Positions 1 through 58,113 of a stretch of 64,000 nucleotides of DNA are shown here, piece after piece. Position 1 is the first letter of the stretch. Each line of letters begins with the position of its first letter. Source of the stretch: Cyanidioschyzon merolae (taxonomy: Eukaryota); assembly GCA_000091205.1 (NCBI GenBank), contig AP006498.2; one strand, written 5' to 3'. A program made the position numbers and the translations under genes. The notes under the pieces were generated by a model that saw nothing but the letters and a program-made list of their open reading frames with translations, ran no database searches and had not been told where the DNA came from.

Positions 1-560
1 CCGGGTAGCAGGGTATTCGGGTGCAGCATGCCGGCACGATCGCCTGCCGCAGGACTCTGCTGCAACATACCTCCTGGGCGGCATGCATGCATGCAATGAC
101 GATTCCTGTACTCGTGCCGCATTCAAACGGAACACTGAACAGCCCGCTCTGTTCCTGACTTTTGCTTTGTCTTGAAATGTATTTGAGATGGACAGCTTGG
201 ACATTTGAATTGCAGCAATATGGCTCTACGGATTCCTGCGTGATTTTTGAATAGTTGGTTGTTTTTTCGAAGTGGTTCTTTCTCGACGCTTTGCCGCCAG
301 AATTCGTTATGTCACCGGAATCAGGATGATTCGCGACACCTTGTCACAAGGGTACGCGAAAGAACTCATATCCGAATAGATTTCGTATGTGCAACCATTC
401 TTGCTTCTCCTTTTGTTCTGTGCGGCATGCACAAAACACGCATGCTTCAAGTTTCCCATCTTTCTATTTCAGGGCAATTCTTCAGTGCAACAGTTCGCTT
501 CGTTGAATCGACGGCGGAACAAAACATGATGTCGTCGTCACCTGGCGCGTTCATATGTTT

Positions 561-1095
561 GATCAGTGAACCAAAAGAATCTCCAAATGACCATGTGGGG
601 TTACATGAATACCCACGCGCAGACGCCTCCCTACGTTCTTTGACGGGCCGCCTGCTATCGGTTTGAGGTTATCGAGGCACATTTCGAGCCTGGGAGGCTG
701 CCCCTCGAAGTTAGATAGGCGCAGCTCCGCGGATCTCGTTTTCAGCACCACAAATCGTCTGATACTGATGGCGTCGATGAAGACTCTGTTCATGAACTCC
801 TTGCGTTTATTGCCTCTGGCTGGACTCACCAGTGCAAATACTGCCAGAACGCGTGCCTTTCTTGCCACTACAGTCTTGTGATCTTCCCGTCGGGCAAAAA
901 TCTTTTCAAGTCGATCTCTCATCGACCTCCTCTTCTTCGTCATTACTAGCTCTTCTTCGCTCGATGGTCGAAGAGAAGATGATTCTCTTCGTTTATTTGC
1001 CCGGAAGCTAGCGATGACGGTGCTCCAGGTTCCCCGACTTCCATGCCCACAACTTTCCCTGGGGTTGTGCATTTCTGAAAATGAACGCACTTCTC
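561..1095 (-). mobile_element. Fanzor/TnpB-like element, miniature internally deleted copy A; keeps the 3' end module, the zinc-finger/RuvC-III coding remnant and the 5' end motif
   Basis: The minus-strand remnant reads ...SCGHGSRGTW...SSEEELVMTKKRRSMRDRLEKIF...ARVLAV...KRKEFMNRVFIDAISIRRFVV, matching the RuvC-III DRD.NAA.NI region of copy C (24658-27010). The 3'-terminal motif gcagacgcctcc / catgtggggttacatg and the 5' motif gaaaatgaacgcac are shared with copies C, D, E and G. Confidence 0.55.
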
Positions 1096-4393: not shown

Positions 4394-6810
4394 GGTTTTG
4401 GGAATGAGCATTGACCATTTGATCATTCCATTTGGATGCTGCTGCGGAAATCAAGCAGTTTCGAACGTACTCGAAGCACTTCCTGATTCGTACTCGTACC
4501 GATAAATTTTGGACCGCCGCTACAAGACGATCGACGCCTTGAGCTCGGATCGCGCTGTTGCGTTGCTTTGCGTGGAAGTATGCAAAGCCGCCGGGATGTT
4601 TCCTGGGGCGAAAAGCGTCTTTATTGGGAACGCGCTAGGTATGCCGTGTGTTGGTCGAAGCATTCGTCGAATCTATTCACCTGTACATCGCAGCATCGCG
4701 CTTTGGTTTCATATTACGGTCTTGGTGCACTTCGGGATTTTCTACCGGGTTACTTTGGGCATGGCATTCTCGTTGACGGTCTGTATATGCAGCATATGGC
4801 ACCTGGTTCCAATTGGACTCGAGGCCCATGGCGAAGGCGCACGGACACATTCCGGAGTATGATGAGGCATCGCCGGTGCACTCAACTGCTGGTGACCTTC
4901 AGGAGGATCCACAGGTGCCCTCATTGAGATGAAAACGTTCGTCGACTTGAAGAACATCATTGAGCAGCGGCGTTTTCCGAATGGTTTCAATCTATGCCAA
5001 CAACTGCAATCGAGACGGTCACTGATTTGAAGCGGTGCCATCGAGGCGACAAGAGCCAAAGACCGCTGGTCGACGGTGCGAATCGATATCCGTGTAGATG
5101 CCGGCAGCGTTCAGCGTCGCCCAAGAGCACCTGCAACCAGACTGACCGGTGTATCCGTTCGGCGGGAGAATTTGCCCGCTTCACTACGACCGGTCAGGTC
5201 GCTGGACGGTAACCTGTGTTCGGTCTATGCTCCCACTGTCGCAGCTGGCAGAATGGGTGCATCTGCGCCCCCTCGGATTGCTGCGGGGCGTCGGCGCTGG
5301 CTTCGTCCATCTTTTGCAGGATATCTGCGGGCGCATCAGGGTGCTTCGCACGTGCGCCGCTCTTTACGGGCAGGCCCAGATGTGGCTTCTCCTGCGCGGT
5401 CTTCTGAGCCATCACGCGTCGATGTGGTCCTTTCCAGCTTACAAGACTGCTTCGTGGATGCGTCTGCAACGCGAGGAAATCCCCGGTTCCCGTTCTGCAC
5501 GACACGTCTCACGACGAACTGAACAAATTGTTCACGCTGGTCAGCGCCGGTAAGCGAACGAACGACTTGGCGCAGGCCTGGTGTCACAGTGCGCTCACTC
5601 CAGAGAATATCCGCGAGTCCGGTCGCAATATCCATCGCCATCAAGTAGTTTCGATTCGCATTCATTGGATCATCGAGATCTTCCGATTCTTGATGGTCCA
5701 GATTCATTGGCCTCGCGGAGCTTTCAGCCACCAAGTCCGTCGTTTGCGCTGCCCTAGGGCAAGCGCTTTGCGAATGACCGCGTTTTACAGCCGAATGTAG
5801 TAGCCCTGAAGCAGGCGAGGGTCTGCTTGGGGAAGGCTCGTGGTTCATCTGGGATTGTCTTCTTGCTTCGTAACTGCCTGAAAGAAAGCTGAGGTCTCGC
5901 TTCACGGCTTTTCCGAGACTCTGGCGCGTAGAAATTTCCAGGGGATTGAAACCACGAAAGAAAGTCTCTGTTCCGTGATACTTGCACCGACGGACAGCGT
6001 GCCGCAGCACGCATGTATGGCGACACGGATGCCACCTGGGACACGTGTACGACCTGGGACGCTGATGCGCACGATGCGCCCTCACTTGAACTGTCCGTGA
6101 CATGCTTGCACGCAATCGCCAGCGCAGATATTGTTCTCTTCAAGGGGTATACTAACTGCATCTGGCAAGGTGTTGCGGATACATGATTGCTGCTGCTGGT
6201 GATCTGGAACGAAACCTCACTTGTTGCGCAGAAGCACCGACTTTTCGCTTGCTTTATACCGGGCTTACCCACGAGACCACAGGCCCGATTGATCTTGCTG
6301 CCCTGCGGGGGTATGGTGTCAGTCGCAGGTGTCGAACGGAGACACGACGCTGTTTTGCTGCTTTGACGGGCGTCGGCTCGATGCGTGCATGACGCGACAC
6401 GCAACATTGACGTGTGCGGGCATCTGCGGCCGTATGGGCGCTTCTTCTTGTACGACTTGCCGTCAGCGCCCTGACTAGGCCTCGGGAACGACCACGGTGC
6501 TCGGATGACCCCGACTACGAGACCATCCGGTGCATCTACTTCACCGCATCTGCTAGGTGATAGACGACAACCTTCGCTCTGGCGCCGTTCCAGTCCAAGG
6601 GCGTCTGCGGGCTGCAAGCCAGTGGATGTATTGGGCGCCAGCGGCGGAATGCGCAACTCGAACGCTATGCTGCCTCCACTGTCGAGAAGGAAATGAGGCA
6701 CCACGTCGCTTGTGCATGCTCACGTGAGTACCGTGAACCATCCAAGAGCCAGAAGACGCGCGCTGGACACGCTGCCAGCACGGAATGCATCACATGATAT
6801 TCAGTAAGGT

Positions 6811-8100
6811 GATCTGTGAAACGAAAAATGTTCTACGATCATTTAGGGTACATTGATATCCGGCCGCAGATGCCACCCGGCCTTTTTTGACCGGCCGACT
6901 CCTACCGGGTTCATTTTCCCCTTGTACATTTCGACTCTGAGACGCTTCCCCACGATTTTGGATCTCGTCAGCTCCTCGGGTCTCGCCTTCGGCACCACAC
7001 ATCGTCTGATACTGATGGCGGCGTTGAAGTCCCGGTTCACGAACTCCATGCGTTTATTGCCCCGGGTTTAACTCACGAGTGCGAGGATTCATCGAACACG
7101 TGCCCTCAGTGCGACTACAGTCTCTTCTTCGCCTAGTCGGGGAAGCACTTTTTCTCGCGTACCTACCCTCGTTTTCTTCTTCCTGTTCGTCATTTGCTCT
7201 TCTTCGCTCGATAGTCGTCAAGCAGGGCATTTTTCGTTTCGCTTTTGTCGAACCCGGCGATGGCGGGCCTCCAGGATACCCCGGCTACCATATCCATAAC
7301 TTTTCCGTAGATTTTTTAAAAGTAAGCACACTTCGAACCTGTCAGCTATACACCGCGAAGAAGCACTTGATGACACGCACCTGGCAGAGGAACGCAATAC
7401 GGGCGAAGGACGATGATCACGGCTGTGCAACTGTGCTTGCTTGGTGCACTTCTGTGTGCACTGGGAGCGTTTGCGAGACCAGAGGACAAGCGTTGAACCC
7501 GTCGATTCTACTCCGGCAAAACAACCAGCACATGTGTTCCGAATCATCGGATTCCGTTCGTGGCTACCGAGTTATTCTGCGCGATGTTCGGGCGGCTGGA
7601 GCGACTAGACGACATCGCCTTTTGCTGGGTGTCTGCTTCCAGCATGGAGCATCCCGGGGCTCAACGTACCGTTCAGCGAATAGATGCGCGCGCCGCAGAG
7701 CTTCCATATGCTACTGGTGACTCGGCAGTTGCGTGACGATGCTTTAATGCTTCAAAGATCCGTATCTTGCATGCCGACTCGCATCTATTGTCGCTGAATG
7801 GTCCAGCGAAGAGGACGTAGCGAACAGGTCCCTCAGCATCGACAAATTCGACTTCGCACAGTGCGGAGTATTTCTCAGTGCTGAACTTTGTCCCTGGTGC
7901 TGCTGTTATCGACTGGACGACCATAATTTCCTCCGCCCGAGGGCGACGCAGCATTAGAAATCCTTTTTCCATGCCCAGACCAGAACAAATAGCGAAATCG
8001 ACACTTGTCAGCGTTTCAGGCGCATGAACCTGCATGGGTCTTACTCGCTTTCAAAGCGGTTTCATTGAAATCTAGAACGCCATTGCTGGAGTAATGCCAG
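6811..8100 (-). mobile_element. Fanzor/TnpB-like element, partial copy B (C-terminal about 1.3 kb plus 3' end)
   Basis: Minus-strand ORFs 7673..8035, 7218..7547 and 6843..7049 give VDFAICSGLGMEKGFLML...IMVVQSITAAPG...YSALCEVEF...FSDNRCESACK...MEFVNRDFNAAISIRRCVV, collinear with copy C motifs (helix + RuvC-II, a C..C knuckle, RuvC-III). The 3' end motif catttagggtacattgatatcc...gatctgtgaa sits at 6811-6850. Confidence 0.5.
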
Positions 8101-21057: not shown

Positions 21058-21453
21058 TATTATACCAGCAATTACATATGCTGAAAGCGGCTTTGTACCA
21101 ACAGGCGAAGTTGCTTGACGAGCGTGCCCCTTTGTATGCATATTTCTCGAAAGGATAGCGCTGATGCCGCGCCGCCCGTTAGCTGGTTTCAAGACGCGTC
21201 GTGTATGGCGTACCCGACCCGAGCGAGGGCGTATCGAGCATCCAGCCACAATGCCATGAAACCGGAACGACTATAACGCTCATGTCTCTCGTTCATGTGA
21301 ACGTTTGCGCCTTCCATGCCGTTTCTACAACCATAAATCCCACGTTAGAATGAAAGGGAAGCGCTCCATTTACATCAATCGGGTATGCTCACGAAACCTT
21401 TGCCGGATTCAATGGGAGCAGGCCTCTGAAAACTGGCGTTCAGGCTGACTTTT

Positions 21454-22000
21454 GGCTCGGCTTCCGCTGACATGGACAAAGGCGTGTGCGCGCTTCTCCT
21501 CTGCCGGCATCGTTTTTCTCTCTGGTACCTCTGCCTGGGAAGATGTCGATCTCGCGTGCCGCTCGAGCTTCGTTGTCGGCAACTGAAGAATGCTCATGAC
21601 AGCGTTCAAGTTCCGGTTACGCAGCTTCCGGCGCTTGCAGATGCATATCATGCACACACAAAAGCTGCTCCCTACGCTCCGCTTGTCGTTTTGCACCCGC
21701 TTTGCATGCGGCCTCGGTGCACATTTCGCGGCAGCGACAGCTTGCTGTGGTCGGATCTTCGCGTGTGGCCACCAGAGCACCTCCTCAACGCCTTTCTCGA
21801 TTTTTCAGCACCAGGTGCCGTATCCTAAGACCACGGGCTTCCTCGGGGACGATCACTTTGGTTCGTACGCTTTCTGCGGCACGCGCAAGTGCACGCTCTT
21901 CGATACGATAGAGGGTGTGTAGAACGCGATATTGTCCATGATGAAACGAGGACTCGAAGGAAAAGCAAGGCTCGAGCAAAACTCGGGAAACTTCGACCCG
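21454..22000. repeat. 550-bp dispersed/direct repeat, copy 1; 99.5% identical to 29893-30443
   Basis: Direct DNA comparison shows identity across about 548 bp with 3 mismatches (ctacgctccgc/ctacgcttcgc, tatcctaag/tatcccaag, cttcgacccg/cttcgatccg). Identical ORFs (MLWWPHAKIRPQQAVAAAKC...) appear in the track at both loci. Confidence 0.85.
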
Positions 22001-22756
22001 TGTAGTCCCAGTTCATCGCAACCGCGCTGCACGAACCGCGAAACTCGACGCTGTCCACCCAAGCCCATAATCAATAGCGAGAACGAGTTGCACCAAATCA
22101 GTTTCGCACGCACACACTATTCTCGCAGCAGCTACGCTGCGTGTAGCGATAGGTGCAGCACCTGCTCTGTGATGCAGGTACTTGCACGGAGACCTGCGGC
22201 AGCGTGCACTAGAGCGCCCTTTCCAATCGCGTTACCCATTGCCCATGACGCTTTACCCATTGCGTGATATGCTTTACAGGTTGCGTTCAACGTCTAACGC
22301 GAGGTGCGGCCTCGTGCCTGCTTCCGCGCTGGGTGCTGCGCGCGCGCGCGCGCGTTTCGGCGCTGCAGCGGCATGGCAGGCCGCGGCGCGTCAACACGTT
22401 GCGCGACTCGAAGCTGCGTTCTGCTCAGGGCGCTCACGCTGTGTACTCCTGCAAGCGGATGCCGTGTGAGATGAAATCTAGCACTACTGGATTTTGCTTC
22501 ACTTGTGCGGGTAATGGACGTTGGGAAGGCACGTTCTACGGTAGCCGTGAGCCTGTCTCCAAAGTGTGGCACTGTGGGAGCGGTGCTGGGTGTCCACGCC
22601 ACTCGATGCGCCTTCCAGGGGCGCAAGCGTCACGCCGCGCACTCCGTTAAGCAGATGATCGTGGCCAGTGGCTGGTCATGAAGAAACCGTCGTCGACCAA
22701 GGTAACGGTGCCGTCCACGTGCCGGAGGCAGCAGCACTCGGCAGCGCGAGGAGCGA

Positions 22757-24289
22757 GTGGTACGCAGCGAGCAAGCGCTGGCGCCGCAGTCTACGATACC
22801 GCGTTGGCGCTCGCAGGCGAATCGCATCGGTCAGGGTCTTGTTGTGTTCCTAGCTGTGAGTTATGTGCTTGAGAAGGCGGTTCCACTGATGCAGTGGCTG
22901 GTGATGCGTCCCAAGAACAAGGTCGGTTCTAGAGCCGGCGTTACTGCGACGAACGTCGGGGCTACTGCTCCAGCTCCGGCTGCAGCTCCGGGAGCCTCTG
23001 GTCTGGACGCAATGGCACGCACCGGCGCTTCTAGTTCGAGCAGCGTTCAGAGGCAGTCATCCTGGACACCACCCGCGACTGCGCAGTGGTCGTCAGCCGT
23101 TGATCTTGTTGAACAGCGCACGAGTCGAAAGATCACGATTATCGGCGGCAAAGGCGGCGTCGGCAAGTCGACCATGGCTGCCGCCACCGCGGTACGGTTT
23201 GCGGACCAAGGTGAGACAACGCTGATTATCAGTACTGACCCTGCACATTCGTTGTCGGATTCCTTCGATCAGGATGTAAGTGGCGGTGCCCCGGTTCCAG
23301 TGCTTGCTGTGGACAACCTCTATGCCATGGAGATCAACCCTGAGCAGATGAAAACGTCTTTGAGAATGCTTCCGGATTCCGAGAAGCTTCAGATGATGAG
23401 CGGTATGGATATGGGCCTGGAAGACTTTGATTCATTGTTCGAGACGCTACCGCCAGGTTTCGATGAAGCGATCGCCCTCGTTGAAATCATGAAACTGATC
23501 CAGGGCGATCCGGCTTTTGCCAAGTTTGATCGGATCGTCATCGATACCGCGCCAACTGGACATACGCTCCGCCTCTTATCGCTGCCGGACTTTTTGGACT
23601 CGTTTCTCGGCAAGATCTTGACCATGAAGAACAAGCTCGGCAACGTTATGAACCAGTTTAAGGGCATGTTCAGTGGAGGCAATGATCAGCAAACCTTGGA
23701 TTCCGCCGATATAGATGAGCTCAAACGGAGCATGAACATGGTTCGCGCTCTGCTGCGCGATCCAAACCAGACAGAGTTTATCGTGGCAACCATCCCGACC
23801 ATGATGAGCGTGGCCGAAAGCGAACGCCTGGTGAAGGATCTCTCCCGGGAAAAGATTCCCTGTCGCCATATTTTTGTGAATATGGTACAGCCGCCAAATG
23901 ATTCATGCAGTTTCTGCAAAGCCCGTCGACGCGAACATGAGACCAATTACAAGTACATCGAACGCGTATTCCGAGACTTTAAGGTTGTTCCGGTCAAGTA
24001 TTTTGAACGCGAAGTGCGGGGCGCCCCAGCTCTTCGGGCGATGGCTTCGCAGTTGTTTGCAGATGACTCGTCTTCGGAACCGGGAACCGCAGCATCAACC
24101 GAGGACACATCGCGCCAAACGACAGAGACGCCTACGATTGCGCCACGCGCGGCCACAGAAGCAAAAGGCGAGCAAGTTGGTGGACGCGGGAACGGCGCAG
24201 GTGCGCACCATATCGCTGCATCGGGTGAGTCTGCGAACAACAACGCGCCGGCAGCGAATACCGCCACACAGCGAAGCTCAGAGCAATGA
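22757..24289 (+). CDS. GET3: GET3/ArsA-family ATPase (tail-anchored protein targeting factor GET3-like), single ATPase domain with N- and C-terminal extensions
   Basis: P-loop ITIIGGKGGVGKSTMAAATAV, then ISTDPAHSLSDSF, DRIVIDTAPTGHTLRLLSLP, and the CxxC pair NDSCSFCKARRREH typical of the Get3 zinc-binding dimer motif. About 125 aa precede the conserved core and an about 80-aa disordered tail follows it. Confidence 0.85.
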   Translation: MVRSEQALAPQSTIPRWRSQANRIGQGLVVFLAVSYVLEKAVPLMQWLVMRPKNKVGSRAGVTATNVGATAPAPAAAPGASGLDAMARTGASSSSSVQRQSSWTPPATAQWSSAVDLVEQRTSRKITIIGGKGGVGKSTMAAATAVRFADQGETTLIISTDPAHSLSDSFDQDVSGGAPVPVLAVDNLYAMEINPEQMKTSLRMLPDSEKLQMMSGMDMGLEDFDSLFETLPPGFDEAIALVEIMKLIQGDPAFAKFDRIVIDTAPTGHTLRLLSLPDFLDSFLGKILTMKNKLGNVMNQFKGMFSGGNDQQTLDSADIDELKRSMNMVRALLRDPNQTEFIVATIPTMMSVAESERLVKDLSREKIPCRHIFVNMVQPPNDSCSFCKARRREHETNYKYIERVFRDFKVVPVKYFEREVRGAPALRAMASQLFADDSSSEPGTAASTEDTSRQTTETPTIAPRAATEAKGEQVGGRGNGAGAHHIAASGESANNNAPAANTATQRSSEQ

Positions 24290-24657
24290 TTGCACCGGAG
24301 GCAGTAGCTGCTCGCGGGGGTCAGGACGTACCTGCTGTTCAAAGCGCCTGGCTACCGACGCGCACTATTTGCTTTCGATTATCATAGAGCGGTGCAACGA
24401 TGGCGCTGCTGCGCTCGCTGCGTGGCAATTATTTCCGTTTCTCTCATGTGCCGTGTAGCTTTCGGATGTGCCTCACGTAAGCGCTTCTACGTTGCGAGCT
24501 AAACGTTCTTCATGCTTTGTGGATCAAAGAATTGGCCCATACTCGCCAAAATTCGCTCACAAAGGGGTTGGCTTTTCGGAGCGTTGCCTGCACGTGATCA
24601 GAGCTCGTGCACCGAATGGACATCATTGATCTCTCGGGCGTCGTGGCTATTTCATTT

Positions 24658-24900
24658 CCATCAGTAGACGTGGAGCGAAAACTTTTCGCGACCATGTAGG
24701 GTACATGGATACCGACGTGCAGACGCCTCCCGGCGTTTTTGGATAGGCCCCCAGTTATCGATTTCAGTTTCTACGTGTACACTTCAACATCTAGAGGCTG
24801 CCCTACGAATTTAGATCGCGTCAGCTCCTCGGGTCTGTTCTCCAGGATCGCAAATCTCCTGATATGGATTGCGGCGTTGAAGTCTCGGTTCACGAACTCC
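24658..24900 (-). ncRNA. Candidate omegaRNA-like structured 3' module of the Fanzor-like element (prediction from sequence only)
   Basis: The region that overlaps the RuvC-III coding end plus about 115 nt downstream is the best conserved part across all copies. It contains two adjacent hairpins whose sequences differ between copies but keep pairing. Confidence 0.3.
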
Positions 24901-26896
24901 ATGCGTTTCTTGCTGCTTCATGAACTCATCAATGCAAGGAGTCCTCGGACTCGTGCCCTGCGTTCCATTTCCTGTTCTGTCAGCTCTCCGCGGTTTTCGA
25001 TTTCCTCAACACGCCGCTGTATGTTCTCCATCTCGACCTTCTGAAGTGTACACCCCAGTTCGTGGTGCACACACGCGATGTTCGGAACTCACCTATCGGT
25101 TTTGTGATATAACGCTGTGCACACTCCTTGTACGCTCATGTCGTTGGAGCGGGTATGCACCCTTTTATGGACGCCCAGCGCCCTGCTCCGTTGCCAACTA
25201 CGAGCCTGTGACTCTCGACCTCCTTCAAGGCGCTCAACTCATGGAAAATATCGGTGAATGCCCGCTGCTTCCCACAGTATAGATTCATACGCCGACGAGC
25301 CCACCTGGGCTTAATATATTCTTTCCACAGCGCATCCCAATGAGCAGCTTGAGTTTTCATGAATTCCCGAAAAGCTTCAAGGTTCGCTCCACGGCTCGTA
25401 ACCTGGCTGATCGCTTCCAGGTGCTCATTCATTCCTGCATTCCATGCCTCAATGTTCTTCCTTGCATTCATTATTCCCGACTCTCGGTAGTATCTCGCTC
25501 TCGCGAACCGCAAAAGACGCATATCTTTCTGACGTAAGTTACCGTCAATGCCATCTTCCGTACGCTTGGGTACTGCGATGGATACGATTTTCGTCTTTCC
25601 AGGGTCCGCGCTGACGACAGTGTCGTTCTCCTGCACCTCCTGCGTGGCAGGATCCGCCTCTTTGTTTTCTGCATCCTTCGTCACGGGCGAAGCGGAGGAC
25701 GGAACAAGACGATCCGCCTTCAAGCGCCGATAGTACACACACGTTGATACTTCATCGCTTTCGATGATCCCTGTGAATACTTTTTTCTTGCGCATTTTGA
25801 GACGATTGAAGTCGAAGATATTCTTCCAGTATGTCTCCCGGTTTTCACCCATGAACTCCTTCCTGTTTACATCGACCTCTGGACTGATCTCCTTTATGAT
25901 GCCGTAAAAGACTCTGTAGTCGATCGTCACAAAATGCGACTAGGCGTCGCGTGCCGGAACGACATCGAAGCACTCCTCCAGAAGCGCAGCCTTCGGTTTC
26001 AACGACTCGTCATTTTTTCCCACACCCAACTCCATCTCCGCCTTGCGTTCGAATTCTCGATTCAGGAATACGAAATAATGCAGGATGAGGGGATGACATC
26101 TTTTTTCATCTTGTCTCATATCTGATAGCTTATCTGCTGGATTGACCAGCCCAAAAACCGCACGATGCTCTTGAGTAGCCGCACGGATCCGATAAGCTTC
26201 ATTCGTGCTCTCTTTCGACGCCCTCTTCTCGGTGGAATCGATCTCCTGTTCATGATGGCAATCTTTCGTGATGCCATTGAGGATGGCCCGTATCGATTCG
26301 CGAGAAGGATCCGGGCAGAGTGCAAACATGGAGCGCATCATGAGGCGTTTCAGGTTCAAGGTCGAATGGTTCTTCGGGTTCTTGATGTACGTCATCGCCC
26401 CGTGGCCGTAAATATCCGCGCCACCGCCGTATCTAGTGCAGTTGAAGCGGTATTCGACGTAGTTTTCTTGGACGGCGTGCACTCGCTCATTTCTTCTCGA
26501 CGCCTCCCCTGTGCCATGCATCGGGTGACGAGTAAAGGTCTTGTTCGAAAATTCTTCCCGAACCTCGACTCTTCCCATGTGCGTCACGTCGCGACGCATC
26601 TCCTTTTCGAAAGCATCAGCCCTGACGAGTGCGTTATAAGAATACTCAAGGAGTACGACTCGACACGGTTTCTGATAGCCTCTCGCAAATTTCACCTGTA
26701 GGGATGCTAAATTTCGCGTAGAAGACAGGCTTTCACATTTATCTCGTCGTACTGTCGTCTTTCGTGGAGCTTTTGACGTCGGGCCTCCTGCTTCTACTTC
26801 TTGGTCAGCTCCTGTTCCTCTAAACTCGGTTTTGTTTTTCGTTTTCTTTTTCTCGGTAGCCCGCGACTCCTGCCCTCCAGGATCCTCAACTTGCAT
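24771..26896 (-). pseudogene. Fanzor/TnpB-like RuvC nuclease gene, disrupted by two in-frame stops (TAG 25940-25942, TGA 25136-25138) and at least one frameshift near 24960
   Basis: Motifs in TnpB order: a lysine-rich N-terminus (EKKKTKNKTEF), RuvC-I VVSADPGKTKIVSIAV, a helix KQRAFTDIFHELSALKEVESHRLVVGNGAG, the zinc-finger lead-in AYKECAQRYITKPIGEFRTSRVCTTNWG, and RuvC-III MEFVNRDFNAAIHIRR (24861-24902). The two ORFs in the track are in the same frame, separated only by TAG-Ser-His-Phe. Confidence 0.55.
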
Positions 26897-27189
26897 TCCT
26901 GTAGCTTTACTTATTTATTTTTGAAAACGAACGCATTTCGAATACGTCGGCTGTAAACTAAGATACAGCACTTGAATGCACTAATTTGAGGGTTGGAACA
27001 GAATTCGATTGAAAGACTCTACGATGACGTCAACGCAAACACAACCTATAAGTTAGATCAACCAGCTGATGATTAGGATCGTGTTTCGCTTCGACGGCGA
27101 GTTGCGCGTCATATCTCAATGGTGGCAGATATGGAGGTGCGCGTATCTGCCGCGCTGTAGAAAAAGAGGAACAGGAACGAACCATTAAC

Positions 27190-27772: not shown

Positions 27773-28756
27773 ATGCTGGCATATGGACACGTTTTGTCGA
27801 CTTTGAAGTCGGACCATACCTGTATAAAATGGACATCATGGATCTCAAGGGCGGCGTCGCCGTTTACTGCGACCGCCTCTTTGCGATCCGTCACCGTTTC
27901 GTTTCCATCTCCGTGCAGAGCAGCACTGTTCGCGAACATGGCAGGGATTGGATCAGGGTTCGTTCCGACGTATACGTTACGTAGCGCTCGTGGCAGTTTC
28001 GGCGAAACAAAGTCTTTATCGCAACCGGCGAGAACCCGGGGACACCAGCGGTTAACTTTCGTGTCGAACGCGCGCCGGCGTTGCCAACTGGTCGCGAGTG
28101 CAGCCGAGGAGCGCCCGGAACGATCTCAAACGCAGAGCGAAATAGACTTTGCGAAACTTCAATTTTCGGAAGGTAATGAGTTGAGTGGTATGGTGTTCAA
28201 ACCGGATGCGGAATTAGCAAAGGCTGGGCCCGATGAGTCCCGTGCGCGACTCGCATACTCGAATGCATGCGAGGAGGCGATTAACAGCCAGATTAACGTG
28301 GAGTTCACCGCCTTTTACGTATACTATGCTTTGCACGCATACTTTGATCGGGATACGGTCGCGCTCCCAGGTTTTGCGGACTATTTCCGAAAGCAAGCGG
28401 AGGAGGAACGCGACCACGCTGTGAAACTCATGCACTATCAAAACAAACGCGGTGGGCGCGTTCACCTGAAGCCGATCGCGGTTCCAGCATTGCACTTCCA
28501 TAACGAGGAGAACTCGGATGCGATTTATGCAATGGAACTTGCGTTGCAACTTGAGAAATACGTGCAAATGAAGCTCATGGAAGTTTGGAAAGTGGCTGAT
28601 CGCGAGCGCGATGCGAATATGACGGATTTTATCGAGGATTTCCTCGACATGCAAGTCGAATCGATCAAAGAGATTTCAGATTATGTTGCTCAGTTGAAAC
28701 GTGTTGGAACTGGTCATGGCGTGTATCACTTTGATCGAGTGCTCGCTGACAAGTGA
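27773..28756 (+). CDS. Ferritin (plant/algal plastid-type, with an N-terminal presequence)
   Basis: Ferritin-like di-iron core [64 protein letters not shown]...[19 protein letters not shown]. About 130 aa come before the core, consistent with a transit peptide. An alternative start is the ATG at 27938 (MAGIGSGF). Confidence 0.85.
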
Positions 28757-29892: not shown

Positions 29893-30443
29893 TTCGGCTC
29901 GGCTTCCGCTGACATGGACAAAGGCGTGTGCGCGCTTCTCCTCTGCCGGCATCGTTTTTCTCTCTGGTACCTCTGCCTGGGAAGATGTCGATCTCGCGTG
30001 CCGCTCGAGCTTCGTTGTCGGCAACTGAAGAATGCTCATGACAGCGTTCAAGTTCCGGTTACGCAGCTTCCGGCGCTTGCAGATGCATATCATGCACACA
30101 CAAAAGCTGCTCCCTACGCTTCGCTTGTCGTTTTGCACCCGCTTTGCATGCGGCCTCGGTGCACATTTCGCGGCAGCGACAGCTTGCTGTGGTCGGATCT
30201 TCGCGTGTGGCCACCAGAGCACCTCCTCAACGCCTTTCTCGATTTTTCAGCACCAGGTGCCGTATCCCAAGACCACGGGCTTCCTCGGGGACGATCACTT
30301 TGGTTCGTACGCTTTCTGCGGCACGCGCAAGTGCACGCTCTTCGATACGATAGAGGGTGTGTAGAACGCGATATTGTCCATGATGAAACGAGGACTCGAA
30401 GGAAAAGCAAGGCTCGAGCAAAACTCGGGAAACTTCGATCCGT
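29893..30443. repeat. 550-bp dispersed/direct repeat, copy 2
   Basis: See 21454-22000. Confidence 0.85.
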
Positions 30444-31159
30444 GTACGCTCCTATTGTGCAAAAACGACGACGCACGCTCCACTGAAAGCGAATGCCTCG
30501 ATGGCTCAAGTCCGAGCCCGAGGCTCGATTTGGTGCAAAGAGAAGGGACGGCCGCCCCTGTGAGCATATCCCGTGAGAGCCATCATGCCGCTGCAGCTGC
30601 AGCTGATGCTGTTGTGGAATGATATTTCGTCTACATCCACAAATACACCAGGGGGAATTGGCTTTTGGAATGAAATCGATCGTTTGACGCGACGAGTTCA
30701 GAGAACATTGGGCATGAACATGTGATCACGCCTTCAAGGGACGACGTCGCGTTGCTCGCCTCTTCGATCCAGTGGCGCATACTGCTACGCCCACGAGTTG
30801 CCTCGAACGAGAAAGCCTGGCGACTTGAACAAACCGCAATTGTGGCACGCTACACACGAAAGACACGGAGAAGCGTGGATACTTGCACATGGGCATTGGG
30901 TGATGATAGTGGGTTAGTTTATGAACCGTTTGTCGAGTGCGTCGCGAGTCCCATTGATTCCATTGATAACGAACTCCAACAGCAGACCGTTGCACGAGTG
31001 ATTCCGAAAAGACGACCGCGAATCCGAAACCTACCTATGAATCTGTCAGCCGTTTTTGATTGACATCAATTTTGAGGCTGTTTTAATTACAAAAAAATTC
31101 AGATTGAAATTGCAAAGAAGATACTGAGCGAGCTGTTTCGGTTTCTGTTTTATTTGAAT

Positions 31160-31790
31160 AGCGAGTCCATAAAACGATAAACATCTCACGACAATGGAAG
31201 GTAAGTATCAACAGCCTCGCGCAGGCGCCTCCCAACCTTTCTTTTACCGTCCCTCTACCATCCGGTTCAGTTTATCCCAGCACGCATCGACTCTGAGGGA
31301 CTGCTCCACAAAGTCGTATCGTCTCAGCTCATCTGGTCTCGTCTTCAGCACCACACATCCCCTGGTATTGATGACGGCATTGAAGCCCCGGCCCATGAAC
31401 GCCATGCGTTCATTGCCTTCGGTGGAACTCACTATTGCAAGGATTCCTCGGCCTCGTGCCCTCAGTGCGATTAGAGTCCCGTCATCGTCTCGTCATGCGA
31501 ACACCTTTTCTCGGATATCTCCCCTCCTTTCTCTTCTTCTTCATCATCATCACTTGCTCTTCTTCGCTCGAAAGTCTGCGACAATAGGATTTTTATCGTT
31601 CGGTTTGCCGCGCACCCCGCGGTTAGAGGCCCTCAGGATCCTCGACTTCCATATCCATACCTTTCCCTAACATTTTCTATTTCTTCAAATGAACGCATTT
31701 CGAATACACCTGCTATAAACCGCGAAAAAGTATATGGCGATACGCACCTGGAGATGGAATACAATGCAAGTGAGCGACTGTAGGATCATT
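31160..31790 (-). mobile_element. Fanzor/TnpB-like element, miniature copy D
   Basis: The 5' end ggtttatagcaggtgtattcgaaatgcgttcatttgaagaaatagaaaa is followed by a retained start ATGGATATGGAAGTCGAGGATCCTGAG (MDMEVEDPEG, compare copy C MQVEDPGG). This is fused to the C-terminal remnant MAFMGRGFNAVINTRGCVV (RuvC-III) and the 3' end motif ...gcgcaggcgcctccc. Confidence 0.55.
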
Positions 31791-35977: not shown

Positions 35978-36575
35978 CACCTGAATTGTGTTCCATACCT
36001 GGGTTCGTTTCATCGTATGCTTTTTTTGCGGTTTAGAGCAGGTGTGTTCGAAGTGCGTTTACTTGAAGAAATATAAAACCCATGACATAGGTATGGACTT
36101 GCACGTCAGGGGTCCTGAAGGGCGATCATCGCGGGGGTTCGACCAGAAAACGAAACAATCCTCTCTTTGTCAACCATCGAGCGAAGCAGAGCAAGTGGCA
36201 AAGATGATGGTGATGATGATGATGATGAAGAGCGGAAATCCGTGAGACAAGGTGTCTACCCGACGGGACTGGAACGAGACTGTAGTGGCACGGAGGGAAC
36301 GAGTTCTAGCAATCCTTGCAAGGATGACTCCAAACAACGTCAATGCACGCATGAAGTTCGTGAAGTGATACTCCAACGCCGCTACCAATACGAGACGATG
36401 TCTTGTGTAGTGAAGACGAATTCCGCCGAGCTAACGCAATCCAACTTTGTGGGGCAGCTTCTCAGGCTCGAAGTGTGCCTCGATAAACTGAAAACGATAG
36501 CAGTTGACCGGTCATGAAAGGCTGCAGGCGTCTGCGCATGGGTAGTCATTCACTTTAGTATGTTGCTCAGAGAAG
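35978..36575 (+). mobile_element. Fanzor/TnpB-like element, miniature copy E
   Basis: The 5' end cacctgaattgtgttccatacctggg...gcggtttagagcaggtgtgttcgaagtgcgtttacttgaagaaatataaaac is followed by a retained start (ATGGACTTGCACGTCAGGGGTCCTGAAGGG), a degraded RuvC-III region (CTHEVREV...), and the 3' end ggctgcaggcgtctgcgcatgggtag. Confidence 0.55.
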
Positions 36576-37520
36576 GACATTTGTGTTGCCATGACTTGGC
36601 GCTGGCGATGCGTCAAAGCTGATGATTATGGCGCTAAAGAATCCCGCCAGACGCCGTGCGTCAACAACTGGACCCGTTAGGCGGTAGGTCACCTGCAGGC
36701 GTGTTTTCCAGGGTCCAAGCATCTGCACTCGCACCAGCATGTCAGTGGGTGCAGGCACGCGCCACCCGATCAACGCCTCATAGAGCGGGTGCGCCGGCGG
36801 TAATATCATCTCTAGGAATCGACTGGAAACGGTACAGATGCGTACCGCTCGCAGGGTTACTTCCACGGCGGAACGTCTCCTGAAACGGGTAAGCACGCGG
36901 GTAGAGGGATAGGTGTTCCTTCTCACCAGCGGGTGCCAAGCAAAGGCCTGCGTCGCGCAACTGCGGTGCAATTCACAAACGTTGGCGGAGGGGAAATTCG
37001 CTCCCCAATATTCATCCTATCCGCAAAGTTTCTACAACGGGTCGCAGCACAAAGGCAGGCCTACATACGAAGACTCTCGGATCCCAGGATCACCACGAGA
37101 CGCGACCGCGCTGCAGGTGAACCACACCTCCAGCCGACATCCTCCGTGGCATGACACAGCAGCGCAGACTCCGTGCGACGTCCGCACCGGCAAGGCGGGC
37201 GCTCTGTCAGACGCTCACGGCAGACTCGGTGTGCACAACGGAACGTTCGCATTTACCAGTATCTCCGAGGGGCAGCATGGATTGTGGACGTTGATGTTAG
37301 GCGGCAAAATGGACGCATCCCCGATCACTGGTGTTCCATGACGTAATCAGAGATGCCTGGTCAGCATGAACGTTCTTTCGATCAAAAAAAAATCGCCCCA
37401 GAAACAGCTGCCCTATGGACGCAAACGAGGAAAACCCGCACACCAATCCATATCGCCAGCTTACAATCGCTAACACACATCACGCAAGGTGCTCCATCGG
37501 GCAATGTTGTGCGAATCCGA

Positions 37521-39039: not shown

Positions 39040-40560
39040 TCCCTCTCTAAGCCCAGCGTTGATCACGGGGAAAAGTTTTCCGTATTTTCGAAGGTTTATC
39101 TTCTGGACGGAGGGAACCGCGAACCGGACGAGTCTGACGGGCTCGTGCTTCATGCTCCGCCCACTGGCGGGTGCAGAGGCGCGACCCGCGCAGCTCGTCC
39201 GCGACGCAGTCTCTTCTGAGACTAGGAGAGGTTACGCTGTATCTGGGCGTCGCCCTGGTCGCGATTGACTCGTAGACTATCGCTTTGCACTGTCGATGGA
39301 AAAACATCTGTCTGTCCAGCTTGCAATCTCCCAGAATGATGATGAATCCCGACCCTGTGTCGTGTGCACCACGCCTCGAGCCGACGCCATCTGTGGTACG
39401 GCAAAGCCCTTCTGCCCCCGTGCTAAGGCTGCATCCGCGCTACCGGCGCTACGGCGGGTGCTCAGGGCCGGCACTTGGCGCACGAAAGAACGCACAAAAC
39501 GACCAGTATATACGAGGAGAGGGAATGGAACTTGCAGGTACGGGGCGGCAGCCTGATGAATGCTTTCCAGAATACCAATGTTTATCTAGGAATCTGGGAT
39601 TGATAGTCAGTGTAAACGTTTTGTCAAACCGAAAAAAAACTGTCCCAGTAGAATGATCATTGCGTTTCACGATAGAAAATACTCCTTCGATGGGCCTGCA
39701 AAACGGGGTGTGCGGAGCAATGCATAGCAGCTCGACCCCGATAGCATCGGCAAAAGCTCGAACGCAACGGGAATAGAGAAATACCTCGTTGTCCAATAGA
39801 AGGACGTCGCCAGAAGTCAGGGGAAAGTCTTCAATCATTCGACAAAGTTGTTGGTGCTGTTGGATGAGGCATATCTACGAAGGAAACTGAGCCCGCCGAA
39901 TGAATCCACTGCAGCTACAACAGCTGTTGATGTCATCGTTCTCTTCGAGTTCGATCGTAAATACAACGGGCGCCCTGCTCCTCTAATACTCACTTACGCT
40001 CTGCCTATATCGTACGAAGCAAGTCTTATCGACTGAAAAAATGAACCGACGTTCCTGGGCTTTGTCTGGGGAGCGACGCTCCGGGAACACTGTCGTTACG
40101 ACTTTAGTGGAAGATGACCGTGCATGAAACCGCAATTATTTGTCCGCAACTGTATTCCAGTGTTTCCAGAATAACACGAACAGGTTGTTGAGAAACAGAG
40201 ACGTCTGTAGCGGCTAGTATCGTGGCTTTCGCTTTCCATAAAGTGATCAACGGTTCGTTCTCTACGATGGACCGCAAGCTGTCTTTACGATGATCGGTTT
40301 CTGGCGCGGAGCGCATCGTATTCTCTTTGTTTCAGTGCTCCTAAACCATCTGAGTACTGTGGTACGTCTAACCTGAAGGGGGAATGAAGCCCTCGATGCC
40401 TTGTTGCGTAAAGAATACGTATCCTACAAGCAATTCGTCTACCATCTATATACGGTACCTTGCATCGTTATTTCCATCGCCTGCTGGACACCGCGGCGAG
40501 GGCGAAACACACATGGGTTGCACCGCTCGTACGGTACGAATGGCAGCTTCTGGAGCCGCT
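39040..40560 (-). mobile_element. Tc1/mariner-like DNA transposon, about 1.5 kb, with a degenerate DDE transposase on the minus strand
   Basis: Minus ORF 39449..39838 ends ...GDVLLLDNEVFLYSRCVRAFADAIGVELLCIAPHTPFCRPIEGVFSIVKRN, the third-catalytic-residue region matching D-N-A--H......-L-LPPYSPDLNPIE of Tc1/mariner/IS630 transposases. Minus ORF 40104..40316 (WKAKATILAATDVS) resembles the first-Asp W..V.FSDES region. The element is contiguous with fragment homologues at 27190-27720 and 1100-2090. Confidence 0.55.
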
Positions 40561-43834: not shown

Positions 43835-44420
43835 CCTCAATTGTGGTCCATCTCCTGGGGCGTGTCGCTGTACGCTTTTTCGCGGCTCATAGCAGACGCG
43901 TTCGAAGTATACTGATTTTTAAAAAAATCTGAGGAAAAGTTATGGATAAGGTAGTCGAAGGATGCTGGGGGCCCGTCATCGACGAGTTCGATAAAAACGA
44001 AAAATCTTTTCCTCGTCGAGAATGGAGCGAAGAAGAGCAAGTGACGAAGAAGAAGATGACGATGAGAGATAGACGAGAAAAGGTTTTTGCCCAATGGGTC
44101 GATGACGAGACTGCAGTGACATAGAGCGCGCGAGTTCTAGCAATCCTTGTACTGGTCAGTTCCACCCGCGGCAAGACACGCATGGAGTTCGTGAACCGAG
44201 ACTTTGACGCCGTTACTCATATACGGATATGAGCGGTGCAGGAGAAGAGGCCCGAGAAGCTGACGAGAGCCAACTTCGTGGGGGAACCTCTCAAAGTTGA
44301 ATTGTATGAGGAGAAGTTGAAGCCAGTAGTAGCTGGCCGGTCAAAAAAGTCTGGCAGGCGTCTGCAGCTAGGTAGGTAACAAGTTACCTTACTATCGCGA
44401 AATGCTTTCGCTCCGCTGAG
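43835..44420 (+). mobile_element. Fanzor/TnpB-like element, miniature copy G
   Basis: The 5' end ...gtacgctttttcgcggctcatagcagacgcgttcgaagtatactg is followed by a retained start (MDKVVEG) fused to ...SEEEQVTKKKMTMRDRREKVFAQW...RMEFVNRDFDAVTHIRI. The 3' end carries hairpins ggtaacaagttacc (44375-44388) and gcgaaatgctttcgc (44397-44411). Confidence 0.55.
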
Positions 44421-44798
44421 CCATGCAGTGCAGGCCTGTGCGATTCAATCACGGGCTTGGTGTACAATGTAGCTGAGCGATGCACGCTTGCAGGTATCGT
44501 GTCTTTTCGGTTTGCGGGCAAAGTCTTCTCGAGCGAGCGCGACTCGTTCGCGAAGAGCGCACAAAATGCACGCTCGTTTCCACAGCGGCCCGTCAGCAAA
44601 TGCAAGCACGAAAAAGAACAACGCTTACGCGAAGAGTGCCGCAAACTCATCTAGTTTCCGCAGCAGCCTGCCAACAAATCCCTGTACCTCCTTAGCGCAC
44701 AGAAGCCCGTAATTCGTGATTATTCGCACTGCAAGATGATTTGAATTGAGTCCGCATTCGCGACCGAGTTACGACTGCTGCCCGGTGACCAGTGCTCC

Positions 44799-56823: not shown

Positions 56824-58113
56824 TCATAAAGCGAGATTCTTTCTCGGTATCTTATGGCTTCTTTGCACATCCGGGGAATCGTCTTGCGAGAGCGCATAGC
56901 CCAGCGTTCCTCCAAAGACGAGCAGCAAGGACATCCATTGGAAGCCGTGCATCTTCGTACCGAAAAGCTGCGCGCTTAGCAAAAAGTTCGCTAGTTTCCG
57001 GAGCGCGGTTACAAGCTGAACATAGAGGATGCTACGGCTGGTGACCTGCATCTGGATCACACTTCGCATACATAAATACTGTGTCATGGTGTTCACCATG
57101 AGAAGCAGCTCACCAGGAGTTCCGCCGCCAGCACCGGATAGCGGCACTGGTGCACGCCAGAGAAGTTTCATGTTTTTCACGAGGGATGCCTGCTCCATCT
57201 CCTGCGCCTGTATTAGAAAAAGCAGCACAGCCACCCAGTGCTGCATGCATAGCAGCTCTGACCTGGTAAGAGTATCGCCAGTAGCACCAGGTCTCGGGGC
57301 AATCAAAAGCTGTTGTAGTATCCCCATGACGGGTGAAAGGAAGCAGTTCACCACAAGCAGAAAGATACCTACCCAGAGGGAAGCCGATGCCCTGAGTGCA
57401 TCCCGCCTCGACTGACTCAGTGTCCCGGTTGCCTGCAGGGCAAGAGCCGCCCACACCAGCCCAGCGGACACGAGAAGCACGCAAATATACTGCACTGCGG
57501 TGTAGCGTTTTCGCTGGAAAATCACGGATAGAATCAACGTCGCAACTAGCGTGCCGGCACGGGAGACGTGCACGAGCTGGATAGATACGCCCAGCTCAAC
57601 AGAGAGGTTTATAAGGAACGCCGTTCCATAGAAAGTGAGAAAATAACCCATGAAGAGCGCCCACGTGCGAGGGCTGTGCAGGCGGTACCTCTGCTGCTGA
57701 CGCCAGTGGGTGCGGAGCTCACGAGCCGCCTGCGGCGTCGTGAGTAGTGCAACGCCCAGCATTTGGACGAAGCTGATAAGCTGGCCTGCATCTCTCGCAT
57801 ATCGCACGCCTATCTCATAGGAGTACGCGTTCAACGAGCATGAGGTCAGCGTCCACCAAGCCGCGTGCAGCGCGTCACAGTTCATCGTGAGCGCGGAACC
57901 GTGCTGCGGAGAACAAGACCCTACAGTTTCGACTAGGAACGCGTTGCCCACGAAACCTATGCACCACTTGGTATTTTGCTGCAAACAATACAGCGGTTTG
58001 TCTTCGGACGGCGCTAGCTCCGTCAGTTGCGATGACGCGCAAAATATCTTTCGCAACACCAGCGATACTGGCAGGCAGTAGACGCTTTCGAGGTCAAATG
58101 GAATGCTGCCCAC
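56824..58113 (-). CDS. Polytopic membrane transporter, drug/metabolite-transporter superfamily-like (possibly a nucleotide-sugar transporter)
   Basis: A 429-aa ORF with about 9-10 hydrophobic segments (FMGYFLTFYGTAFLINLSV, VATLILSVIF, ICVLLVSAGLVWAALAL, VGIFLLVVNCFLSPVMGILQQLLI, VAVLLFLI, LLLVFGGTLGYAL). The family assignment is by eye and is low confidence. Confidence 0.45.
   Translation of the reverse strand: MGSIPFDLESVYCLPVSLVLRKIFCASSQLTELAPSEDKPLYCLQQNTKWCIGFVGNAFLVETVGSCSPQHGSALTMNCDALHAAWWTLTSCSLNAYSYEIGVRYARDAGQLISFVQMLGVALLTTPQAARELRTHWRQQQRYRLHSPRTWALFMGYFLTFYGTAFLINLSVELGVSIQLVHVSRAGTLVATLILSVIFQRKRYTAVQYICVLLVSAGLVWAALALQATGTLSQSRRDALRASASLWVGIFLLVVNCFLSPVMGILQQLLIAPRPGATGDTLTRSELLCMQHWVAVLLFLIQAQEMEQASLVKNMKLLWRAPVPLSGAGGGTPGELLLMVNTMTQYLCMRSVIQMQVTSRSILYVQLVTALRKLANFLLSAQLFGTKMHGFQWMSLLLVFGGTLGYALSQDDSPDVQRSHKIPRKNLAL

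Follow-up and report, generated by a model that had tools for sequence, protein, structure and literature searches.

Two short hairpins stand side by side near the 3′ end of a repeated element in Cyanidioschyzon merolae, and the question that this locus raises is whether they act as RNA, as DNA or not at all. The locus (positions 24658-24780) belongs to a 64,000-nucleotide stretch of contig AP006498.2 (assembly GCA_000091205.1), which was analyzed as a whole and is called the window below; the element, of which this is copy C, reads on the minus strand. A first-pass annotation had placed the hairpins in a TnpB-like transposon and had proposed that they are either the scaffold of a nuclease-guiding RNA (omegaRNA) or hairpins recognized by a Y1 HUH transposase. 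Our results indicate that the element carries a relic of Fanzor1, and we give an even chance to the reading that the interval is the 3′ scaffold of a Fanzor1 omegaRNA whose guide would lie beyond the right end of the element. This reading builds on the nuclease family, on the location of the module, which runs from the stop codon to the right end, and on its retention in copies devoid of an open reading frame (ORF), called ghosts hereafter; its remaining parts are drawn by analogy with published systems.

The identity of the nuclease comes from the coding body of the element, which is present in copy C only:

25136-26896, minus strand: Fanzor1 pseudogene body of copy C, made of ORFs 25940-26896 and 25136-25930 with an in-frame stop between them, and with a frameshift and stops downstream

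Copy C spans approximately 2.3-3.2 kb, and its ORF is not intact, being broken by an in-frame stop codon at 25940-25942 and by a frameshift near 25080. The reconstructed protein has 37 homologues, all from Joint Genome Institute (JGI) metagenomes, with 47-69% identity and E values down to 1e-220, and a wider search gathered 1,476 relatives; intact ORFs occur among the metagenomic ones. A first profile search of the PDB, based on close relatives only, gave no match, and the match with Fanzor1 was reached only after widening the profile. The widened profile (A12, 77 relatives) matched PpFz1 of Parasitella (9cf0, E value of 9.4e-22), SpuFz1 of Spizellomyces (8gkh, 3.5e-15) and GtFz1 of Guillardia (9cer, 9.1e-8), and the motifs DPG, DEFRT and NRD.NAA.NI aligned with the solved Fanzor1 structures. 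Because the A12 profile matches and these hallmark motifs align, the protein of copy C is classified as a Fanzor1, the eukaryotic homologue of TnpB, now a pseudogene. The transposon context put forward by the first-pass annotation was therefore right. Pfam scans of the copy C ORF pieces returned nothing, and the family carries just a weak DUF8286 label. When set against the motif published by Bao and Jurka in 2013, D-X(125,275)-[TS][TS]-X-X-[C4 zinc finger]-X(5,50)-RD, copy C and its relatives have the aspartate (VVSADPGKT), EFRTS and NRDFNAA; the four zinc-finger cysteines of the same motif are not conserved (THHELGC...EKC...LALVS). An AlphaFold2 model of relative P0003 was too poor (predicted local distance difference test score, pLDDT, of 39.8) for comparison with the RuvC fold. 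Relatives P0001, P0006 and P0015 contain a variable number of tandem repeats of about 25 residues (ATQKVQDNDLVVDA.KHEE.KEA), located in P0001 at residues ~390-480, before the first RuvC aspartate; copy C has one unit.

The surroundings agree with a known host. Bao and Jurka described a C. merolae Fanzor1 family, CMe-1A, with about 150 copies of approximately 3 kb that are ~80% identical to their consensus, without terminal inverted repeats (TIRs), with undetermined target site duplications (TSDs) and accompanied by short non-autonomous relatives (PMC3627910). The window is that of an intron-poor eukaryote with a GC content of ~55%, and its genes include nucleoporin Nsp1, trehalose-phosphate synthase/phosphatase, ArsA/Get3, 14-3-3, SNAP and ferritin. 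By this description, the element is assigned to the CMe-1A type of C. merolae, as an ancient and now decayed Fanzor1 transposon.

The minus-strand sequence of copy C is ...GGAGGCGTCTGCACGTCGGTAT CCATGTA ccc TACATGG tc GCGAAAA g TTTTCGC TCCACGTCTACTGATGG, in which the following features can be distinguished:

24692-24708, minus strand: hairpin 1 of copy C, CCATGTA ccc TACATGG, with seven perfect pairs; candidate first omegaRNA stem-loop
24675-24689, minus strand: hairpin 2 of copy C, GCGAAAA g TTTTCGC, a perfect 7-bp stem that folds with six pairs and a 3-nt loop; candidate second stem-loop
24658-24674, minus strand: 3′ tail of copy C, TCCACGTCTACTGATGG, 17 nt; approximate right end of the ghost-type module
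24700-24713, minus strand: alternative hairpin (i), overlapping hairpin 1; GGTA tccatg TACC in copy C, GGGTA-N6-TACCC in the family consensus

The two perfect 7-bp stems that had been reported for copy C were thus verified in the sequence. Their folding is also exceptional, as the 65-nt RNA reaches −19.9 kcal/mol against −13.0 ± 2.5 kcal/mol for dinucleotide shuffles (z = −2.78, none of 200 shuffles being as good), compared to a z of −1.52 for the opposite strand of the same stretch. The tail contains a motif, CAC..CTACTG, common to the other copies and to the metagenomic family (CCACTACTGTAC), and is able to pair with CGTCGGTA upstream of hairpin 1, which would close a three-way junction. Covariation of this closing helix was not significant in the metagenomic relatives.

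The hairpins occupy only part of the interval. The whole of 24658-24780 had been taken for a hairpin module, an extent that does not hold for 24710-24780: this upstream half is, judging by its reading frame, a relic of the basic C-terminal tail of the protein, hence formerly coding.

24774-24902, minus strand: remains of the last coding segment, including the RuvC-III motif FVNRDFNAAIHIRR, which aligns with Fanzor1 structures
24710-24770, minus strand: relic of the C-terminal coding tail, KLKSITGGLSKNAGRRLHVG, downstream of a premature TAG

Beyond the TAG of copy C at 24771-24773, the frame of FVNRDFNAA still reads KLKSITGGLSKNAGRRLHVG. Copies A, B, C and G likewise continue the last-exon frame as KLKPIAGGRSKKAGRRLRVG, as do intact relatives, among them P0006 (...GRSKRTRRRLHLG), and since the tail is kept in A, B, G and the intact relatives, the TAG of copy C is regarded as premature. 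The ancestral stop codon lies inside the 3′ arm of hairpin 1, as TAA in copy B and as TAG in the metagenomic relatives (...TGG AGA CGT TTC GTC TAG). Published Fanzor omegaRNAs may overlap the stop codon (PMC10432273). Extra constraint on the last ~200 coding nucleotides, which would point to an overlapping RNA, was looked for and not found.

The 3′ module, which extends over ~300 nt, occurs in six copies in the window (A, B, C, D, E and G) with pairwise identities of ~70%, and five of these are ghosts of ~0.5 kb. A short remnant of a seventh 3′ end is called copy F.

522-857, minus strand: copy A, in a ghost element of ~0.5 kb, found by blastn and nhmmer
6764-7106, minus strand: copy B, in a ghost element at ~6800-7353; its frame is open to the TAA inside hairpin 1
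24627-24959, minus strand: copy C, last coding segment plus non-coding tail, found by blastn and nhmmer (E value of 5.5e-95)
31167-31462, minus strand: copy D, in a ghost element that extends to ~31720
36294-36640, plus strand: copy E, the most diverged copy
44125-44466, plus strand: copy G, in a ghost element that starts at ~43918; hairpins at 44375-44388 and 44397-44411
27824-27930, minus strand: copy F, remnant of a seventh 3′ end, immediately upstream of copy C and opposite the 5′ part of the plus-strand ferritin ORF, which it overlaps

Each ghost joins a 5′ part of ~200 nt (found in copy C at 26894-26958) to the last ~350 nt of the element. Conservation among copies runs past the stop codon and ends within ~20-65 nt, shortly after the hairpins. 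Beyond the module the flanks are unrelated and match nothing else in the window or in the metagenomic loci described below, and the exact right end is uncertain. The 3′ terminus that had been set at 24658 proved to be only approximate, as the copy F remnant (27824-27930) shares a further ~45 nt with 24611-24653. Approximately 38 of 43 nt are common to 24611-24653 and 27824-27866, and both diverge after GTCCATT.

24611-24657, minus strand: possible right-end extension of the full-length type, without a convincing hairpin in copy C (z = +0.09)

Because these ~45 nt recur beside the copy F remnant, the full-length right end may be near 24611 instead of 24658. The hairpins lie 17 nt, or possibly ~64 nt, from the right end, and no third hairpin was detected in copy C downstream of 24658 (z = +0.09). 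The copy F remnant itself keeps a hairpin, GGCGGTCGC...GCGACGCCGCC, that copy C is without, and lies antisense within ORF 27773-28756 (plus strand), ahead of residue 168, where the ferritin domain begins.

At the other extremity, ghosts start near TA.AGTC, with a TA before AGTC at several ghost left ends. Neither left-end nor right-end alignments revealed evident TSDs, and no clear hairpin or target motif was found at the left end. We also recovered 80 loci (L003-L082) of a younger full-length sister subfamily from metagenomes. In these loci, full-length copies reach several hundred nucleotides 5′ of the ghost start. Their region 300-700 nt ahead of the ORF (L003 520-930, for instance) comes in two or more unrelated forms, an organization that agrees with the composite structure of a TE-N2 plus Fanzor unit described for CMe-1A. 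Among the syntenic metagenome loci recovered with two window proteins there was no empty (unfilled) site, and the same insertions were present. The first-pass annotation had also proposed to look for a re-targeting signature in the 3′ flanks. When the 43 nt that follow each copy were compared with the window and 82 loci, only chance-level matches emerged, apart from the 24611-24653/27824-27866 repeat.

The omegaRNA reading leans in part on a comparison with published Fanzor1 elements. Their omegaRNA occupies the interval from the stop codon, which it may include, to the right end, a variable guide of 14-15 nt follows, and ORF-less ghosts retain the region (PMC10432273). The module described here occupies the same position, from the stop codon to the right end, in all six copies, including the five that are ORF-less. 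In the three solved Fanzor1 complexes the first stem-loop always has 7 bp, and SpuFz1 and PpFz1 have one more before the guide (PMC11423790); this arrangement is seen in copy C (7 + 7 bp) and not in the other copies or in their consensus. By analogy, a sense transcript of the module would fold into the 3′ part of an omegaRNA scaffold, hairpin 1 corresponding to the 7-bp first stem-loop held by the RuvC/TNB surface of Fanzor1 and hairpin 2 to the second stem-loop. Beyond the right end, the RNA would include a guide provided by ~15-20 nt of flanking DNA. The module would be transcribed, processed and protein-bound, with a target-adjacent motif (TAM) at the left end, and the guided Fanzor would cut empty target sites beside the TAM, aiding persistence of the element. 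Ghosts of ~0.5 kb appear to keep a promoter-proximal 5′ end together with exactly this 3′ module, and could for this reason be served in trans. Given that all copies in the window are decayed (~70% identity, broken ORF), their hairpins are relics and not working parts.

The case originally made for function was that the structure is conserved by compensatory change while its sequence drifts, a claim that is overstated and for which we found weak support. Copy G does contain the stems quoted for it, GGTAAC aa GTTACC at 44375-44388 and GCGAAA tgc TTTCGC at 44397-44411, which had been said to occupy the same positions as those of copy C. Its first hairpin is in fact the overlapping alternative hairpin (i), in a register that differs from that of hairpin 1, and since the arms of its second are those of copy C minus one pair, their resemblance reflects sequence conservation without compensation. 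Hairpin 2 has mismatches in the arms of B and D, where it is weakened, and is absent from A and E. The 5-bp hairpin reported for copy A is present at 592-607 as CATGT aacccc ACATG; it is a weakened version, and copy A folds at z = +0.35. Against these register shifts and weakened stems stand a few anecdotal double changes, in hairpin (i) and in variants of the terminal hairpin described below. While only GGTA/TACC remains of hairpin (i) in copy C, it is strengthened in copy G, with a G-C to A-T double change, and reads GGCTG/CAGCC, with two compensated pairs, in metagenomic ghost copy L064; ghost copy L031 has an intact GGGTA/TACCC. The consensus of the six copies folds better than 194 of 200 shuffles.

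The metagenomic loci offered a larger set, of which 51 distinct 3′ ends were analyzed. Two window proteins are identical in many of the metagenomes that also hold the homologues, and by these exact matches the sister subfamily is taken to come from metagenomes in which the organism itself is present. After an anchor, GGAGGCGTCTGCACGTC, the relatives have in order AGACG ttt CGTCT, GGCG-N5-9-CGCC, the motif CCACTACTGTAC, a spacer, a terminal hairpin of 10-12 bp and unrelated flanks, that is, a 5-bp first hairpin and two further ones. A profile hidden Markov model of the subfamily (nhmmer) ceases to align with the window copies where the hairpin region starts. Although the sequences are too diverged to be aligned from there on, both subfamilies have hairpins after this anchor. 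With positions counted from the anchor, hairpin 1 of copy C corresponds to the relatives’ first hairpin and hairpin 2 to their second, with which it shares the base GCG...CGC. A long-range pairing of GAGGCGTCT with AGACGTTTC, predicted by RNAfold in many relatives, has no counterpart in the window copies.

The terminal hairpin is the sole robust hairpin among the relatives and had been overlooked in the first-pass annotation. It is present in nearly all 51 copies (mean z of −2.2; z below −2 in 55%) and occurs in three registers, exemplified by GACGTCGTTCGA ctt TCGAACGGCGTT, AACGTTTTTC tttt GAAAGGCGTT and ACGGTCGG...TCGACTGT. It is stabler on the sense strand in 48 of the 51 copies (−12.0 versus −8.3 kcal/mol). 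G-U pairs account for 101 of its 551 pairs, and in the fixed-register structure considered below there are 136 G-U pairs against 75 A-C mismatches. The sense-strand stability and the G-U excess favor an RNA structure, or at least a strand-specific one. GGCGTTT marks the right end of this younger subfamily. In L038 (700-800, compared to L067) the last 49 nt, which begin with the 3′ arm of the second hairpin and include the terminal one, are duplicated in tandem, and the duplication ends exactly at GGCGTTT. The 15 nt that follow the terminal hairpin in loci L003-L082 (for example L010, 3468-3482) fall into recurrent G/T-rich groups, TTGTTGGTGCGTG, GTGGTG.., TTTGTTTCCAGGGG and TTCGG..., for which either an element longer by ~13 nt, an insertion-site preference or a GU-rich processing signal could account.

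Several observations weigh against a role of the module as omegaRNA scaffold. Both stems are intact in just one of the six window copies, copy C, and the remaining copies fold unremarkably (z of −1.46 for G, +0.35 for A, +0.66 for B and −0.55 for E). The six-copy consensus adopts other hairpins, including hairpin (i) as GGGTA-N6-TACCC, and even the full 128-nt module of copy C is unexceptional, with a z of −0.45 and both strands alike. The non-coding module is the least conserved portion of the element. Among the 51 relatives, a hand-drawn structure of five helices, among them the closing helix (GTCAGT with ACTG.AC) and a helix that surrounds an A-rich loop farther upstream, had 77.4% of its cells paired in a fixed register, compared to 77.7 ± 0.4% in shuffles, for a covariation score of 0.089 against a shuffle mean of 0.096. 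RNAalifold kept three to five pairs in two alignments of these copies, whose hairpin-1/2 region is no stabler than shuffles (mean z of 0.0). A covariance model built on the relatives finds six of six window copies (E values of 2.6e-11 to 6e-3), while aligning hairpin 2 of copy C with the relatives’ terminal hairpin and deleting the two inner ones; the window hairpins being aligned inconsistently, the correspondence of hairpins between subfamilies is ambiguous. There was no Rfam match in the window at the gathering threshold, and 24560-25000 gave chance-level matches only (E > 2). Finally, no TAM is definable, because the left-end boundary is unclear. In a fixed register, the lack of statistically supported covariation across a larger set of copies, which the first-pass annotation had named as speaking against its proposal, is essentially what we observed. 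The evidence that it offered does not hold up, the hairpins of G and A being in another register or weakened, and part of the interval being relic coding sequence. Covariation among copies is a weak test, because transposon copies decay neutrally after insertion; only differences between active lineages are informative, and the 51 copies, being related, are not independent. Differences between subfamilies do suggest that the ability to form hairpins was kept, most clearly in the case of the terminal hairpin.

Part of this evidence is what would be expected if the hairpins had no function, the stems of copy C being short palindromes that owe their origin or survival in a single decayed repeat to chance, and the apparent conservation reflecting shared ancestry: five of the six window copies fold no better than shuffles, covariation is null in the relatives and no part of the element is more variable than the module. 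We consider this explanation rather unlikely. It has to be reconciled with a fold in copy C that beats 200 of 200 shuffles and a consensus that beats 194, with hairpins that recur after the same anchor in subfamilies no longer alignable there, with pair-keeping double changes in hairpin (i) of G and L064, and with a terminal hairpin rebuilt in three registers.

It is quite unlikely that the hairpins serve instead as single-stranded DNA signals at the transposon end, read by an unknown transposase in the manner of IS200/IS605 (Y1 HUH) or of the Helitron 3′ hairpin. Such a role would suit subterminal hairpins in an element without TIRs (PMC3627910) or evident TSDs, as well as the strong hairpin that abuts the right end in the younger subfamily and the L038 duplication that stops exactly there, at GGCGTTT. 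DNA energy parameters also favor the top strand in 42 of 51 copies, and Fanzor1 genes are known inside Helitrons, which have 3′ hairpins (PMC3627910). On the contrary, the ~30 larger ORFs of the window and the ORFs of the element include no Y1, HUH or Rep-helicase gene, their matches being host genes, and no such transposase was reported for the CMe-1A family (PMC3627910). The Y1-type DNA hairpins that had been offered as an alternative are therefore unsupported. Moreover, the ends are unlike the 5′-TC...CTRR-3′ of Helitrons, the share of G-U pairs in the terminal hairpin suits RNA better, and a DNA signal offers no reason for the overlap of the first hairpin with the stop codon, a feature of known Fanzor omegaRNAs. 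Finally, a role of the hairpins in the 3′ untranslated region of the Fanzor mRNA, in transcription termination, 3′-end formation, mRNA stability or translation termination at the stop codon within hairpin 1, would fit hairpins that begin at the stop codon on the sense, stabler strand and the G/T-rich flanks of younger copies (TTGTTGGTGCGTG, GTGGTG...), which recall GU-rich downstream elements, but is quite improbable given that ghosts keep the module with no protein to express and that known Fanzor1 elements use exactly this position for their omegaRNA (PMC10432273).

The omegaRNA reading can be carried further, to a point where we find it highly conjectural and very unlikely to hold in full. 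The scaffold would be modular and fast-evolving, the subfamilies of one genome (full-length type and ~0.5-kb ghost type) having structurally equivalent, unalignable sets of hairpins and the terminal hairpin being rebuilt repeatedly in new registers. The overlapping hairpins 1 and (i) at the stop codon would act as a switch between Fanzor translation and the folding or processing of the guide RNA, and ghosts would be parasites of the Fanzor protein that encode guide RNA only.

If the module is an omegaRNA scaffold, it would be the first guide-RNA candidate for the Fanzor1 family of red algae (Cyanidiales), which since 2013 has been known only as a protein in an unclassified transposon, and intact metagenomic relatives could yield a compact RNA-guided nuclease with a short scaffold. 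We found no description of a 3′ module or RNA for a family of the CMe-1A type in the searchable literature. The protein family, its occurrence in genomes of the Cyanidiales type, the omegaRNA principle and the ghost pattern are already known. Within this window the copies are relics and the finding is ordinary. It nevertheless carries a general caution: hairpins compared among decayed copies of one repeat say little about selection, and covariation should be sought between active lineages.

Other features were noted in the window. A 554-nt direct repeat (21451-22004 and 29893-30446, 99.3% identity) brackets 8.4 kb in which an ArsA/Get3 paralogue, copy C and the ferritin gene are located; it postdates the Fanzor copies by far and may represent either a recent segmental duplication or the termini of a different element. 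Genes for ArsA/Get3-type ATPases are located at 22757-24289 and 49312-51786, the second coding for two tandem ArsA domains (824 amino acid residues). Direct repeats of 127 and 72 nt with ~72-74% identity, at 1719-2062 and 40174-40520, lie upstream of 3-beta-HSD and MFS transporter genes and are unrelated to the Fanzor copies. A weak match of covariance model R1 at 58042-58123 on the minus strand (17.8 bits, roughly calibrated E value of ~9e-4), within a UAA-transporter ORF, is probably spurious.

Three known systems invite comparison with the element. In IS200/IS605 elements, the scaffold of the TnpB omegaRNA (reRNA) lies in the 3′ end of the nuclease gene and the right end, and flanking DNA provides the guide; the bacterial elements also have a Y1 TnpA, defined left-end and right-end hairpins and a conserved cleavage motif. 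The C. merolae element resembles them in its homologous nuclease with RuvC motifs, and differs from them in that we found neither a Y1 TnpA nor defined end hairpins with a cleavage motif, nor an Rfam match. Its likeness to CMe-1A and TE-N2_CMe is that of an old Fanzor1 family in an intron-poor, red-alga-like genome of ~55% GC, with a length of ~3 kb, ~70-80% identity, no TIRs and short non-autonomous relatives (PMC3627910). Unlike TE-N2, which shares the 5′ 635 bp, the ghosts of the window combine a 5′ part of ~200 nt with a 3′ part of ~350 nt, and the 3′ hairpins and RNA are not described in the CMe-1A paper (PMC3627910). The system of SpuFz1 and ghost Spu-1 in Spizellomyces punctatus (Saito et al. 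2023, PMC10432273; Xu et al. 2024, PMC11423790) belongs to the same protein family (8gkh, E value of 3.5e-15). It has 30-nt terminal inverted repeats, which the C. merolae element is without, and the latter is known here from DNA alone; hairpin identity is unstable across the C. merolae copies and subfamilies, zinc-finger cysteines are not conserved (HHELGC.., LALVS) and all window copies are decayed. Both systems nonetheless have a conserved non-coding module between or across the stop codon and the right end, copies of ~0.5 kb that keep this module without an ORF, and flanks that soon become unrelated. Copy C, with a 7-bp first hairpin followed by one more, is like the omegaRNAs of SpuFz1 and PpFz1, whereas the younger subfamily, with three hairpins, is closer to GtFz1 and its several stem-loops.

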